From: a virus
Lineage: Duplodnaviria > Caudoviricetes
Virus record (IMG/VR): IMGVR_UViG_3300031669_000032
Span: 1-58,507 of that record
DNA length: 58,507 nt
Reading direction: 5' to 3' (one strand)
Shown here: positions 12,378 to 35,571 of the stretch, one piece after another
Numbering within the stretch: the stretch's first letter is position 1
Layout of the letters: the number at the start of each line of letters is the position of its first letter
Notes under the pieces: model-generated
Database searches by the model: none
What the model was told of the DNA's origin: nothing
Seen by the model: only the letters and a program-made list of their open reading frames with translations
Made by a program: the position numbers and the translations under genes

Positions 12378-13029
12378 ATTATCCCCTTTAGATATGCACC
12401 CCACTGCTCCGCCATTGCTTTTGCAATTCCTGGGAAGGTCCTGCTTCTAAGCCTTGCCCGGTCTTTGTTATATCCGAGACTCTCACACCAATGAATTGGG
12501 TTACCAGCTTTTTGCCGGTCTTAATGTAATTGATGGGATCCGGCTTGCTTTTGTCATGAATTCTATATTGTAACGGCGGTAGATTCTTCAACCATAAACA
12601 CGTTCGCTTCATGTACTTATCCCCAAAGTACCAGGGATGAATAATTTGATCTGGTTCTCGGTAATGAGAACTCACATGCCCCACCGGATTCTCTATGCAG
12701 ATATACTTGATTCCGGAATTCCAGAGCATCATAAAAAATATAAGAGCATCCTTTCTTTTTTGTTTCCTTACTACCGCAGCGGTGCCGTATTCTTTTTCAT
12801 TAAACCAGCGATTGCCCACATTACTTAAGTAAGTACACGGAGGAAATCCGATTATCATATCCCATGATTTATCGATGTGATTCAGTACATCGTCTTTGAT
12901 ATGCCACTCCGGGTGTCCACCGCTGCAGTCCTGGGTATCACAAGAAAAGGCCGTAAACACTAATTTTCTGAATTCTATGGTTACGGCCTGGGACTTTTCA
13001 CAGGCGGTTAATATTCTCGTTTCGCTCAT
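12371..13029 (-). pseudogene. C5-cytosine DNA methyltransferase, frameshifted at an A5 run
   Basis: ACE.S, SCD, FPPCTYL, IENP and K.TCLWLK motifs; the conserved tail RSRTFPGIAKAMAEQWG lies in the -1 frame after 12509-12513. Confidence 0.8.
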
Positions 13030-13271
13030 TTCGTGCTTTTTGAGAATTCCCATACCAGTACACCGAAGAAAACGACTCCAATTGCCACGGCCGCTATAGG
13101 AGCGACCCAGAAAAATAACCGATAATGGCCGGGATCCTCGAAAACAATAGAACTTATTGCTCCGGCAAAAACCCCGCTGCAGCCGAGCATGAGCCAGAAG
13201 GTCGCCATTTTTCCGACCCGGTAAAAGATGATTGCGGCAATTAATGCCACTAATGCGATTGCGATTTTCAT
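13026..13271 (-). CDS. Small multi-pass membrane protein
   Basis: Three hydrophobic segments; AAGGAG RBS. Confidence 0.65.
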   Translation of the reverse strand: MKIAIALVALIAAIIFYRVGKMATFWLMLGCSGVFAGAISSIVFEDPGHYRLFFWVAPIAAVAIGVVFFGVLVWEFSKSTK

Positions 13272-13299
13272 TTTATTCTCCTTAAGTTTAATTTTTTCT

Positions 13300-13515
13300 C
13301 TACCACAGCCACCAAATCGTTTTGTATGCCAGGTAAATAGCCAGACCATAAGATGCTGTAAGCGATCTAATCGAGTTGCGTTTTATTGCTTTTCTCGATA
13401 TGCTTTTGCGGGAAAAGTAACCACTATAGTTAAGGAGTTTATCGAACACCCACATTATAATCTGTTGGTAGAATTCCCCAAGACACATAAGGATGAAAAT
13501 TTTTAGTACTATCAT
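13300..13515 (-). CDS. Hypothetical membrane protein
   Basis: AAGGAG RBS. Confidence 0.55.
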   Translation of the reverse strand: MIVLKIFILMCLGEFYQQIIMWVFDKLLNYSGYFSRKSISRKAIKRNSIRSLTASYGLAIYLAYKTIWWLW

Positions 13516-13553
13516 TTTAGTTCTCCTTTACTTTAATTTTTTAGTACTACATC

Positions 13554-13817
13554 ACCCCGGCCAGAAAGGTAAAAGAAAAGATGACCGGGGCTTTTTGTTT
13601 CAGTATCGTATGCCCGGCCCAATGCAAGCGACCGGACACACTCCATATAACTGTTAGAAATTTCACGCCCTACTCCCGGCAGGGTCATTGCGTTAACCTT
13701 CCCGGTGTAACGGGTTGCTTATTAACAGCATGGTCACTTCAGCACCTCCTCGAATAAAATTGCGTTGTGAGATACCAGGACGCGGGCCAGGAGGTTAGGG
13801 CACCGCGCCCCAATATC
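13554..13817 (-). ncRNA. Candidate structured ncRNA cluster
   Basis: Intergenic, GC-rich; stems 13554-13591, 13608-13641, 13643-13733 (multibranch) and 13771-13817; G-U pairs favour the minus strand. Confidence 0.6.
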
Positions 13818-13837
13818 ATGAAAATTATTGTAGTAAT

Positions 13838-14059
13838 TCATATTGATATAGTCTTAAGGCAAATCCAGAACGCAAGTGCTACGACCAAAATACCCGGTAA
13901 CCAGCAATGCCAGATATATTCAAGAAAAGTCTCCGGAATGTCAATTATCGTAATCTTGATAGCTGATTTCTGTTTACCGACCTCCTTTTTAATCGGCTTC
14001 TTTGCAGCAAGTGAAAAAATGTAAATGATTATTTTCTGCAGCACGTTACCTGTCCTCAT
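13838..14059 (-). CDS. Hypothetical protein with C-terminal TM helix
   Basis: ORF; start uncertain. Confidence 0.45.
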   Translation of the reverse strand: MRTGNVLQKIIIYIFSLAAKKPIKKEVGKQKSAIKITIIDIPETFLEYIWHCWLPGILVVALAFWICLKTISI

Positions 14060-14234
14060 GCTTACATTGCTCGCAAATAATATCGTAATTTTCACATTGG
14101 AAACACATCCAATATGTTTTAAATCGGCACACCGGGCATTCCGCATCCCCATCAGGAGTAGACCTTAATGGTTCTACTTCATTATGACACCTGGGGCAGG
14201 TGATGCAACTTTTCTTGATATAAAAACTTCTCAT
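14046..14234 (-). CDS. Zn-ribbon hypothetical protein
   Basis: Four CxxC pairs; CAGGAGGT RBS. Confidence 0.65.
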   Translation of the reverse strand: MRSFYIKKSCITCPRCHNEVEPLRSTPDGDAECPVCRFKTYWMCFQCENYDIICEQCKHEDR

Positions 14235-14252
14235 GTTACCTCCTGAATAATT

Positions 14253-14356
14253 CCCCGCCTGCCCGGTATTCCGGGAATATCAAGCGGGGCTGTAATAATA
14301 ATGCAACCTGGCGGGGGAGAGTTAAACTTAGGAGGTTTATTTGATTTCCCGCCAGG
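14253..14356 (-). ncRNA. Two hairpins, one with an anti-SD loop
   Basis: CCTGGCGGG/CCCGCCAGG stem enclosing TAAAC-CTCCTAA-GTTTA; second stem CCCCGCTTG/CAGGCGGGG. Confidence 0.55.
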
Positions 14357-14378
14357 GTGAATATTAAGATATATAATT

Positions 14379-14615
14379 TCATTTTGCGGTTCTTATATAT
14401 ACGAATGCCGTTACAATTGCAAGCATGGCAAAAACAAAACACAGGACGTACAGCAGGAATTCGCCAGGCGTTTCTGGCACCAGGTACTTGAATTCAAAGG
14501 CTGTGATTCCGCCGATCTTACATTTTTTTTTCGGCGGTGCATCATGCTTTGATCTTGATATTATTATTAAAATTGATAGCAATGCCTTATTTATCATCTC
14601 ATCGATAAGCTTCAT
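14379..14615 (-). CDS. Hypothetical membrane protein
   Basis: GGAGG RBS; C-terminal TM helix. Confidence 0.55.
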   Translation of the reverse strand: MKLIDEMINKALLSILIIISRSKHDAPPKKKCKIGGITAFEFKYLVPETPGEFLLYVLCFVFAMLAIVTAFVYIRTAK

Positions 14616-21669: not shown

Positions 21670-22070
21670 GTTACCTCCTTTTTATTCTCACACTCACACT
21701 TCCCGGCTACTTCCCCGCAATATCCGCAGTGAGTTTCCCAGTATTCCGTAATTTCCTGAAGCTTCCGGAAGTGGTCGAAAAGTTCGTTATCTCGGTTCAT
21801 TATTTTTCCTTACTGCCGCGCTCATGCTCTTCCATTTCCATGGCACAGAGCGGATGAGCATAACCATCAATATAAATTTGATAATTTACGTATCCTGTTT
21901 TTTCCCCGCATATTTCACATTTCAATTGAATTGCCTCTTTTACTTCTTTTCCGCCAAAACAATTAATATTACCCATTTTATTACTCCTTTACCTTCCCAA
22001 AATATCGGCCCACCCTGGCAGTACAATGACCAACCAGGGCAGACCTTTTATCAAGGAGGTTACATATGAA

Positions 22071-22388
22071 CTATTTAATAGTGCGGTCATTTTGGTCTAT
22101 ATTAATTAATACGAATGGTTCTGGTGAGCCCTTTGATTCCATCGCAATTTCCAAAATCCAACCCCGGCTCTTCACCTGCCCCACAACTCCAACCAGGTTC
22201 GGCTTTTTTCCATTCTGTAATAATCCGCCTTTGTTCACGGGAGCGGATGCGAAAACAGACTTCCCATCACTTTCCCGAATGAGCCGGTAAACGCCCTTCG
22301 CAAATTCCCAATGGCATATGTCGCCCGGTTCAGCATGGGGTGCTTTGGGGTATTTTGGGTAAGTGTTTTTAGCGATCTTGATTTTCAT
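22071..22388 (-). CDS. Hypothetical protein
   Basis: ORF in operon; start uncertain. Confidence 0.55.
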   Translation of the reverse strand: MKIKIAKNTYPKYPKAPHAEPGDICHWEFAKGVYRLIRESDGKSVFASAPVNKGGLLQNGKKPNLVGVVGQVKSRGWILEIAMESKGSPEPFVLINIDQNDRTIK

Positions 22389-22569
22389 TTTGATCTTCCC
22401 GCTCTCCAATTACGGACACAGTATCCTTGTCCGCAAAAAAAATCTTCCGTGTGACAATGTAGTTGTGATCGTTCATGTATATCGTATCCCCAATGTTGGG
22501 GATTGCTGGAAGCCAGATGTGCTTCGCAAGCTCTGGTGTGTTGAATAAAACCCTCATTTCTTGATTCAC
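22369..22569 (-). CDS. First gene of leftward operon, hypothetical
   Basis: GTG start with TTAGGAGGT RBS; P.IPNIGD.I....Y.V..K.F motif. Confidence 0.7.
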   Translation of the reverse strand: MNQEMRVLFNTPELAKHIWLPAIPNIGDTIYMNDHNYIVTRKIFFADKDTVSVIGEREDQNENQDR

Positions 22570-22602
22570 AATAACCTCCTAAGTTATTTTTAATATTGCA
22601 AG

Positions 22603-22789: not shown

Positions 22790-22864
22790 AGTATAATATG
22801 GTTTTCGCAAATTGTCAACAAAAAAAATTATTTTGTTGACAATCTGATATTTCCATATTATACT
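22790..22864. promoter_or_regulatory. Symmetric divergent sigma70 promoters
   Basis: TTGACA-17-TATACT on both strands; 12-bp and 13-bp perfect inverted repeats. Confidence 0.88.
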
Positions 22865-32819: not shown

Positions 32820-32862
32820 ATAGTTGGTAACCGGGTGTTACTGAATAACTTAGGAGGTTATT

Positions 32863-33144
32863 ATGAAACAAGAAATAAGGATTAATTTTGCGGTTCTGGA
32901 AGATGTAAGTAGGATATGGAATAAGGGGAATAAGGAAAGGTACTATCTCACGGAACGTAGTATCGACCCTTGTCTTTCAGCGTATATCTCAAGAGAAAGA
33001 GACAAGGGCCGGTATGAGATAGAGTTAAGTAACGGGTTCCTATATCTCGAAAAATGTTACAATGATCTTAACAAAAGGATAGAGGAAATTGTCGAGATGT
33101 TGAAGGTTAACAATTGTATGGCTTACGAGCCGAATAAAAATTAA
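32863..33144 (+). CDS. Early hypothetical protein
   Basis: W.KG.K.RYY motif; TTAGGAGGT RBS. Confidence 0.7.
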   Translation: MKQEIRINFAVLEDVSRIWNKGNKERYYLTERSIDPCLSAYISRERDKGRYEIELSNGFLYLEKCYNDLNKRIEEIVEMLKVNNCMAYEPNKN

Positions 33145-33700: not shown

Positions 33701-33763
33701 TCAGTTTACCCCGCGGTCGGGTTCGCCCGACCTCGGAGGTAAATTAATTAATCACAGGAGGTT
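33697..33763 (+). repeat. Intergenic hairpin repeat, copy 1
   Basis: 67 bp, 2 mismatches to 34518-34584; long stem with G(TTCG)C loop followed by RBS. Confidence 0.9.
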
Positions 33764-33768
33764 TTAAA

Positions 33769-34517: not shown

Positions 34518-34584
34518 TTAGTCAGTTTACCCCGCGGTCGGGTTCGCCCGGCCTCGGAGGTAAATTAATTAATAACAGGAGGTT
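34518..34584 (+). repeat. Intergenic hairpin repeat, copy 2
   Basis: Matches 33697-33763. Confidence 0.9.
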
Positions 34585-34587
34585 ATT

Positions 34588-35571
34588 ATGAAAAGAAAAA
34601 TGGTTTTTGAAAAAATGGTAAAAAGATTGCAAGGAGATTGCGAGATTTTGAAGCACTCCCAGAACTGGGCCTGGGCAGATGTTGAATCGCATGGCGATCC
34701 GGAAGATTGCTCAATAAAACGGTATACCATCGATGAAGCTATCGCCATAGTCGATGAGTGGGAAAAGGAAATCGAAAAAGTCGTGGGAATTATTAACATG
34801 TCGCCCCGGAAGGGTGATGCGCCGATGGTTACCGAATACGGCAAGGATTGTGTTGGTTGCACAATCGAAGGCGATATCGAGCGAGAATATCCCATCCCCT
34901 ACGATACCATAATTAATTTGAGTGGAAAGTGGGAATTCCGGTTCTATGTAGAATCGACTGCAGGTGGTGGAGCGTCGTGGGAAACTATGGGGCCTGGTAT
35001 CAACGATACTAGGAAAGAATATGTAATGCGTAATTATGGGAAATTAGGTTGCTACAGCACCTTGTTAGCTGGGTATATTGTTAATCCAGAAATAATGTGG
35101 GCAAGAAACGGCTGTGCCGTTAGTGCTCCAGCGGAGATCAAGCAAAGCTACTTACGAGGTTTTAATTTTTTCACCAGGCACAAAATCTTGGGGGGAGATA
35201 CTTTCCTTCAAAAGGAAAGCAGAAAAATGCTGATTGACCTTATAGACGATTGCGAACTTTTGGATTTTGGTAGTTATACGCAAGGACATCTTGCATGTGC
35301 TGAATTGACAGAAGCTGATCTCAGCAGCACGAAAGTGCATGTTGAGGATTTGGAAAGGTTTCCGGGAAAATACCATGCGAAGTTTTTTAATCACCAATGT
35401 CTCGGTGGTATGTATGTGGACTCAACCAGGATTGACGATACTGGCTATTGCTTAGTTCATTTTCGTATGCCTGGTTGGATAGTTTCGCCTGACCACATCG
35501 ATGAAGCAGTATCAGTTTTGCCGGGATATTATCTATTGCGGCATCCTATCCCGCATGGGGACGTTGATTAA
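34588..35571 (+). CDS. Early protein with C-terminal QQGDV-like domain
   Basis: TQGHL...NH...I.SPDH......PG.Y......D.D resembles 29856-30212. Confidence 0.65.
   Translation: MKRKMVFEKMVKRLQGDCEILKHSQNWAWADVESHGDPEDCSIKRYTIDEAIAIVDEWEKEIEKVVGIINMSPRKGDAPMVTEYGKDCVGCTIEGDIEREYPIPYDTIINLSGKWEFRFYVESTAGGGASWETMGPGINDTRKEYVMRNYGKLGCYSTLLAGYIVNPEIMWARNGCAVSAPAEIKQSYLRGFNFFTRHKILGGDTFLQKESRKMLIDLIDDCELLDFGSYTQGHLACAELTEADLSSTKVHVEDLERFPGKYHAKFFNHQCLGGMYVDSTRIDDTGYCLVHFRMPGWIVSPDHIDEAVSVLPGYYLLRHPIPHGDVD

Follow-up and report, generated by a model that had tools for sequence, protein, structure and literature searches.

In phage MS2, the replicase is tied to coat translation by long-distance pairing. 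The c4 antisense RNA of phages P1 and P7 (Rfam C4) adopts a defined fold of its own and is released by processing, the RNase III R sites of phage T7 are intergenic and usually carry an internal loop, and Com of phage Mu acts on the mom messenger. A loop that starts with Y-U-N-R bears the U-turn signature of fast-pairing antisense loops. The cuckoo RNAs of alpha-proteobacteria (RSs0680/C14-type sRNAs) are free-standing genes with two to four adjacent hairpins that each carry CCUCCUCCC (PMC4615179). The cuckoo family is the closest trans analogue of the phage locus analyzed here, which shares with it CCUCC-containing anti-SD loops, several modules per genome, compensatory stems and a kept loop motif. 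Unlike the cuckoo RNAs, the phage hairpins are single and lie 541 nt apart with genes between them, their loops carry AACCUCCU rather than CCUCCUCCC, one of them sits inside a coding ORF, and they are phage-borne with no transcription signals of their own found. The two phage hairpins, H1 and hairpin A, fall outside the cuckoo family, lacking its defining features. On the cis side, translational coupling through a sequestered SD and riboswitch pseudoknots that pair with an SD come closest. A non-exhaustive literature search turned up no publication describing hairpins with anti-SD loops within phage operons.

We analyzed a whole viral record of 58.5 kb (the window; estimated completeness 89%), in which genes lie on the minus strand at 1–22.6 kb and 38.7–58.5 kb and on the plus strand in between. 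The left arm encodes recombination and replication functions, namely a Sak4-like protein, SSB, an exonuclease, RusA, DNA methyltransferases, an initiator and a DnaC-like loader, and an AGGAGG(U) with 5–8 nt of spacing stands ahead of nearly every gene of both arms. Hairpin H1 (13771–13817, minus strand) falls between the RusA gene and a methyltransferase gene. The original prediction had described a 15-bp minus-strand stem with four G-U pairs, and folding confirmed this stem and extended it: arm 13817–13803 (GAUAUUGGGGCGCGG) pairs with 13785–13771 (CCGCGUCCUGGUAUC) in 15 bp that include four G-U/U-G pairs, above which one bulged U is followed by a 3-bp inner stem of GCC/GGC pairs and a 10-nt apical loop, CUAACCUCCU (13789–13798), that displays the anti-SD motif ACCUCCU with P(unpaired) 1.0. 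The 15 bp alone have a stem energy of −21.2 kcal/mol, and H1 ranks second in stability among the 50 strong sense-strand hairpins of the window. A search with Rfam 15 covariance models, which had been suggested as a check for a family of silencing RNAs, came back empty: the whole window gave 0 matches at gathering thresholds, relaxation to E values up to 10 over 12800–14500 gave only three matches at chance level, and the best score over H1 was 15.9 bits for Termite-leu against a gathering score of 51. A tRNA/tmRNA scan of the window found none.

Relatives of the locus were recovered from metagenomes. The GenBank phage collection, searched in near and distant modes, gave no match; nor did IMG/VR, searched with a 31-mer, a 28-nt consensus pattern and two neighboring proteins, or GTDB genomes, searched by pattern and with the major-head protein, and 80 loci obtained through the methyltransferase family were without similarity to the hairpin block. 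A metagenome scan with the neighboring 62-aa zinc-ribbon protein returned 15 loci, 14 of which (L082–L095) align with the region, and the resulting alignment (A2) holds 15 sequences, the window and these 14 metagenomic relatives, which all fall within about 75–97% identity. The stretch or part of it occurs in 10 public runs, six from soil (six studies) and four from marine sediment (one study). Four of these runs were examined, each with contigs ranging from identical down to less than 90% alike, and in marine-sediment run X9 the longest listed pieces are 83–96% alike.

Comparison of the aligned sequences reveals that H1 is present in 15 of 15, and hence in all 14 relatives, with 266 of 270 cells paired. 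One G-C pair is replaced by A-U in five sequences with at least three different flank backgrounds and reads G·G in three others, an inner C-G pair is U-A in two sequences and U·G in two, and four more pairs vary on one side through wobble. The loop and upper stem are almost invariant across the 15 sequences; ACCUCCU is kept in 14, the exception being AACUCCU in L085. Paired cells amount to 98.5% on the sense strand versus 78.1% on the opposite strand, and for the six-helix structure that H1 forms with downstream hairpins H2–H6 the corresponding values are 99.2% and 82.6%; the structure therefore belongs to the sense RNA. The plus strand does not fold into H1, and the earlier claim that the G-U pairs form on the minus strand only holds on both counts. 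The covariation score of the six-helix structure was matched by 0 of 500 shuffles, and slid controls paired 32–45%. We conclude that H1 is a real, conserved, strand-specific and covarying RNA hairpin, a solid structural finding for which the functions considered below are proposals. As a separate observation, the H1 copy at L082:807–853 carries four simultaneous 5′-arm substitutions that turn this arm into a perfect Watson-Crick match to the 3′ arm of the window type and cause three amino-acid changes in the encoded peptide, a pattern that looks like template-switch (templated) correction of a quasi-palindrome.

H1 is contained in ORF35 (13734–13841, minus strand), a frame of 35 codons plus a stop whose ATG overlaps the TGA of an upstream membrane-protein gene (ATGA). 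An ATG-started frame of 33–37 codons is open in 15 of 15 sequences. The ATGA overlap is found in 13 of them, with three different upstream gene ends, and the two sequences that lack the usual ATG (ACG and ATT) each carry an in-frame start codon, ATG, three codons earlier; a 6-nt indel keeps the frame. The pN/pS ratio of ORF35 is 0.29 (0.21 without L082), compared to 1.36 and 1.45 in the other two frames and to 0.21–0.38 in neighboring genes. The third-position excess is weak (7:4:9 versus roughly 1:1:3 in neighbors) and pS is 0.137, against 0.209–0.393 in three of four measured neighbors and 0.123 in the fourth, the zinc-ribbon gene, for which two sequences were compared; the weak excess and the low pS fit an extra constraint from RNA. 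The compensatory change of G-C to A-U in H1 is synonymous on both sides (GCG>GCA and CGC>CGU). Judged by these substitution patterns, ORF35 is a small protein-coding gene under purifying selection. H1 is not a free-standing RNA gene and is embedded in this ORF, in the middle of a polycistronic leftward early operon; inspection by eye for a frameshift or bypass signal found no slippery heptamer ahead of it. A profile of ORF35 found no relatives among 1.84 billion representative proteins, the sole match, a 1135-aa repetitive protein, being taken as spurious, and Atlas gave no usable match. The lack of relatives elsewhere would suit a chance inverted repeat in a small ORF with no function, an explanation that we regard as extremely improbable for a conserved hairpin in which two pairs have changed on both sides and whose covariation score no shuffle reached.

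The prediction of a second anti-SD hairpin within 600 bp proved correct. Hairpin A (14307–14356, minus strand) is intergenic and shares the 8-mer AACCUCCU with H1; it combines a 9-bp GC stem with a 32-nt loop containing AAACCUCCUAAG, in which an inner 5-bp stem presents CUCCUAA. Twelve relatives keep hairpin A nearly unchanged, and L095, which retains the zinc-ribbon gene with its SD, lacks it. Hairpin B (14253–14289, minus strand) lies between hairpin A and this SD (14238–14244). An ORF of 49 codons over hairpin A (ORF49) was rejected as a gene, with a pN/pS of 1.33 over eight variable columns and a frame that is broken in L085, L089 and L090, and a homology of modules A and B was rejected with a global-alignment z of only 2.1. 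A third sense-strand UAACCUCCU of the left arm (22054–22062, minus strand) is intergenic and immediately precedes, on its 5′ side, the hairpin that ranks first in stability in the window (22007–22045); in the MFE fold it pairs with GGGAAGGU, located 3′ of that hairpin and a short way ahead of the SD of the next gene (21976).

We next consider whether the anti-SD motif reflects chance or selection. The sense strand of the 58.5 kb holds 14 CCUCC, 6 CCUCCU and 3 AACCUCCU; all three AACCUCCU are hairpin-associated, and two of them, in H1 and hairpin A, occupy apical loops. A count of CCUCC-loop hairpins, the second check that had been suggested, gave a split answer: the two CCUCC loops among the 50 strong hairpins exceed the 0.11 expected from window composition (P = 0.006), yet 80 unrelated phage loci have such loops in 13 of 1082 strong hairpins, and against that background rate two of 50 is therefore unremarkable (P = 0.12). 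The N-L-L of ORF35 is spelled AAC CUC CUG, with CUC accounting for 6.4% of the Leu codons and AAC for 29% of those for Asn, and the H1 loop is also constrained by the conserved peptide P-N-L-L. From the rare codons, the scarcity and hairpin association of AACCUCCU and the low pS of ORF35, the motif looks selected at the nucleotide level, and we lean toward it being functional.

The SD complement in H1 lies upstream of a strong SD in the same mRNA and inside coding ORF35, the arrangement of a cis element. This SD, GAGGAGGUG (13743–13751, minus strand), is very strong and nearly invariant and belongs to the 3′-terminal part of ORF35; a 7-nt spacer separates it from the GTG/ATG of ORF14 (13693–13737, minus strand), a frame of 14 codons that is probably translated and whose start overlaps the ORF35 stop (GTGA; ATGA in seven relatives). 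The small frames of both modules end on or next to the next start, and UUAUUC(G)AGGAGGU follows both modules and is found at no other AGGAGG site listed. We tentatively propose, as the likeliest of the explanations considered, that H1 is a cis translational-coupling device whose loop masks the strong SD until ORF35 is translated, an explanation that we hold to be possible and somewhat short of an even chance. The H1 loop ACCUCCU (13795–13789) would pair with AGGAGGU (13750–13744) within GAGGAGGUG, 38 nt downstream. The SD complement sits in an apical loop, and the pairing therefore needs a pseudoknot, which would be of the H type: 3 nt would precede the loop helix on its 5′ side, no spacer would follow it 3′, and the linker would span ~20 nt. 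The loop–SD helix would keep free 30S subunits off the SD; a ribosome passed on from the upstream gene at the ATGA overlap would translate ORF35, melting both the hairpin and the loop–SD helix; and the same ribosome would terminate at the (G/A)UGA stop–start overlap, so that initiation at the next start would depend on upstream translation. Hairpin A would act likewise on the SD of the zinc-ribbon gene.

The energy of the loop–SD duplex, including the cost of opening, is predicted at −6.6 kcal/mol for H1 and −6.1 kcal/mol for hairpin A, both before any topology penalty, and by our own estimate a pseudoknot with a 3-nt first loop, a 7-bp second helix and a linker of ~20 nt across 18 bp appears geometrically possible. 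Nested MFE folds, computed with a program that does not handle pseudoknots, leave the H1 loop free. The 15 sequences contain no loop–SD covariation and include uncompensated single changes that break the helix, C>A in the loop of L085 and G>U in the SD of L088. H1 and hairpin A each match their own downstream SD over a 7-nt core only, and for H1 this is shorter than the matches to several distant RBSs. Two further findings stand against control in cis: the candidate regulated ORF14 is unconserved as a peptide and deleted in 4 of 15 sequences, and L095 retains the zinc-ribbon gene with its SD in the absence of hairpin A. An alternative SD-sequestering helix proposed by RNAalifold, in which the 3′ arm GGUAUCUC pairs with GAGGUGCY, was rejected; full H1 is more stable in 11 of 15 sequences, by 3–10 kcal/mol, and the alternative helix shows only one-sided transitions.

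Masking of an SD by H1 would resemble MS2-type coupling in that an SD complement lies in an upstream translated cistron, a stop overlaps a start and passage of a ribosome would free the SD; unlike in MS2-type coupling, the complement here is carried by an apical loop that tops a strong local hairpin, and its pairing is predicted. The preQ1-II and SAM-II riboswitches likewise form SD-sequestering H-type pseudoknots in which a hairpin loop pairs with a downstream SD, as is predicted here, and H1 differs from them in showing no sign of a ligand pocket, in having no Rfam match and in lying inside an ORF. We class H1 as a cis-acting mRNA structure with an SD complement and a putative role in translation, and from the sequence arrangement we infer loop–SD pairing, SD masking and coupling. 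Control over how its own messenger is translated is a more likely role for H1 than silencing of other genes. Should H1 act in cis, 47 bases would carry three layers, a selected peptide, a synonymously compensated stem and an anti-SD loop spelled in rare codons, and the locus would show how uncultivated phages with strong SDs enforce both order and ratio of translation along long early operons.

Five more conserved hairpins follow H1 in a block of ~320 nt (13554–13841) that has no Rfam match. ORF14 contains hairpins H2 (13716–13730) and H3 (13701–13714); its peptide is unconserved and is lost through a 38-nt deletion in 4 of 15 sequences, and an H2 pair changes from U-A to C-G in 5 of 11 sequences by substitutions that are non-synonymous for ORF14. 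Hairpin H4 (13668–13684, minus strand) varies in 4 of 15 sequences, with both partners substituted at two pairs. It is followed by a single-stranded stretch of 20 nt, AUUUCUAACAGUUAUAUGGA (13642–13661, minus strand), that has 0 substitutions in 15 sequences, six of which have one inserted T. Hairpin H5 (13608–13641, minus strand; 12 bp, three wobble pairs, dG −19.6) is paired in 180 of 180 cells, with five pairs that vary on one side only, via G-U, and hairpin H6 (13554–13591, minus strand), with 9–10 bp and a large pyrimidine-rich loop, is the last element before the SD of the next gene. A 51-aa ORF over H4–H6 (13533–13688) was discarded, since 1-nt indels lead to a stop after eight codons in many relatives, as was H6 as a plus-strand terminator, given its overlong loop, wobble pairs that suit the minus strand and the absence of a call by the terminator scan. 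Pairing between the H1 apex and H4 gives the best duplex in the window (−25.7 kcal/mol; next-best duplexes −23.9 and −22.7) and was rejected, as it requires an opened inner stem and is weakened in the four deletion variants. The region 13554–13735 (minus strand), downstream of ORF35, is largely non-coding and structured and may form the functional core to which H1 belongs. This conserved and undescribed structured RNA block, without an Rfam family, recurs in phage contigs from soil and marine sediment and is located exactly at sites of gene-cassette exchange.

The density of stable hairpins points to a second possible explanation, which we consider doubtful though by no means negligible: H1 may be a structural mRNA element, such as an RNase III-type site, a decay barrier or a ribosome-slowing hairpin, in which CCUCCU is incidental to the P-N-L-L peptide. 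When the sense-strand hairpins of the window are ranked by stability, six of the top 12 are at 13554–13817 and 14253–14356, four of these six have no anti-SD loop, and the 18 bp of H1 with a single bulge are near the size of RNase III substrates. Purifying selection on the peptide constrains the loop, and the frequency of CCUCC loops is usual by the standard of unrelated phages. Like the T7 R sites, H1 is a long and nearly perfect stem in a polycistronic early transcript; unlike them, it lies within an ORF, and its 18 bp with one bulge compare with about two turns of dsRNA as the criterion for an RNase III substrate. Counting against a purely structural role are the spelling of the motif in rare codons, the presence of the same 8-mer in the loop of an intergenic and nearly invariant hairpin 541 nt away, and the rarity of CCUCCU elsewhere on the sense strand.

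We also examined the complementarity of both loops to distant RBSs. CAGGAGGTTA occurs on the plus strand at 34576 and 35671 in the RBSs of genes starting at 34588 and 35683. The original prediction had listed 10-nt and 8–9-nt complementarities between H1 and phage RBSs, and our recount gives matching figures: the H1 loop is contiguously complementary over 10 nt to the RBSs at 34577 and 35672, over 9 nt to those before 33769, 17232 and 16664, and over 8 nt to those before 37603 and 14234. With loop flanks shuffled, a longest match of 10 nt to the 24 AGGAGG RBSs has P = 0.09, and the match of H1 is within chance given the RBS consensus of this phage. The hairpin A loop can pair with 13 contiguous nt of the RBS cassette AACUUAGGAGGUUAUU (P = 0.03, shuffled flanks), or by eye at 16 of 17 positions with one bulge allowed. 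This cassette is found at 22573–22590 (minus strand) and 32840–32857 (plus strand), ahead of the genes at 22369–22569 (minus) and 32863–33144 (plus), which also have their first ~9 codons in common.

These matches bear on the proposal that H1 and hairpin A, as excised RNAs or stable decay products, mimic the 16S 3′ end and silence phage or host RBSs in trans, which we judge unlikely. The H1 loop is fully exposed and begins with CUAA, fitting Y-U-N-R, it has the 10-nt complementarity to the two rightward RBSs, hairpin A matches the distant cassette over 13 nt and its own SD over 7 nt, and the cuckoo sRNAs with their CCUCCUCCC loops offer a known precedent (PMC4615179). Against this, ribosomes translating ORF35 would unwind H1, a 10-nt match is expected by chance, and an RNA directed at AGGAGG, which precedes almost every gene, would be without target specificity. 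No promoter- or terminator-like site adjoins H1, and the surrounding 2.1 kb contain five promoter-like sites versus 6.0 expected. The more specific version in which processed anti-SD decoys with (U)AACCUCCU loops bind the cassettes CAGGAGGUUA (H1) and AACUUAGGAGGUUAUU (hairpin A), timing or silencing the genes behind them, is in our estimate decidedly unlikely; if correct, one 47-nt stretch would double as peptide-coding sequence and riboregulator, and action in trans would more generally make the locus a phage counterpart of the alpha-proteobacterial anti-SD-loop sRNAs. Like c4, H1 is an RNA element embedded in a phage operon with a loop that could pair with the RBS of a downstream cistron of the same transcript; unlike c4, it is coding, and the C4 model gave no match even at E values up to 10. 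The suggestion of a family of translation-silencing RNAs is accordingly kept in part: structure at the RNA level, restriction to the minus strand, conservation and a second AACCUCCU hairpin stand, and separate silencing RNAs aimed at the CAGGAGGTTA genes are unsupported, given the position of H1 inside a coding ORF, the missing promoter and terminator, the empty Rfam search and a match with P = 0.09.

The gene between the two anti-SD hairpins suggests another partner for H1. The zinc-ribbon gene (14046–14234, minus strand) encodes 62 aa with four CxxC pairs and is kept in 14 of 14 relatives, and its product might bind H1 as an operator in the manner of Mu Com on mom. The near invariance of the H1 loop and upper stem and the DNA methyltransferase gene downstream would agree with such a role; proximity is the sole link between protein and hairpin, and the protein matches no family above threshold, Com included. 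We consider this proposal quite improbable.

Module A is the most conserved segment measured, with 97.0% identity to the window, compared to 93.6% for ORF35 and 80–93% for flanking genes. This gradient, mosaic joints at both module edges (three upstream contexts of ORF35, and a 71-aa gene that 4 of 14 relatives carry and 9 lack) and the loss of hairpin A together with its upstream gene in L095 would fit a role at the DNA level, in which the region is a conserved linker for cassette exchange by homologous recombination and its identity reflects recent exchange. Recombination leaves the strand-specific G-U pairing, the compensatory pairs and the 99.2% pairing unexplained, and we find it very unlikely as the explanation of H1; a linker function may coexist with an RNA function without replacing it. 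The 71-aa gene (13300–13515, minus strand), replaced in the one remaining relative, is bounded by a repeated RBS sequence, and at 14008–14058 most relatives, unlike the window, have an extra gene of 61–141 aa between the zinc-ribbon and membrane genes.

Repeated RBS sequences also occur in the rightward genes. The same intergenic cassette stands ahead of two of them, at ~33716–33768 and 34537–34587 (plus strand), in the order hairpin GUCGGGUUCGCCCGRC, then CUCGGAGGUAAAUUAAUUAAU, then ACAGGAGGUU, and the phage appears to make a habit of reusing RBS cassettes. In the divergent region between the arms, a perfect 13-bp palindrome (ATTGTCAACAAAA...TTTTGTTGACAAT; 22811–22843) has an operator-like look.
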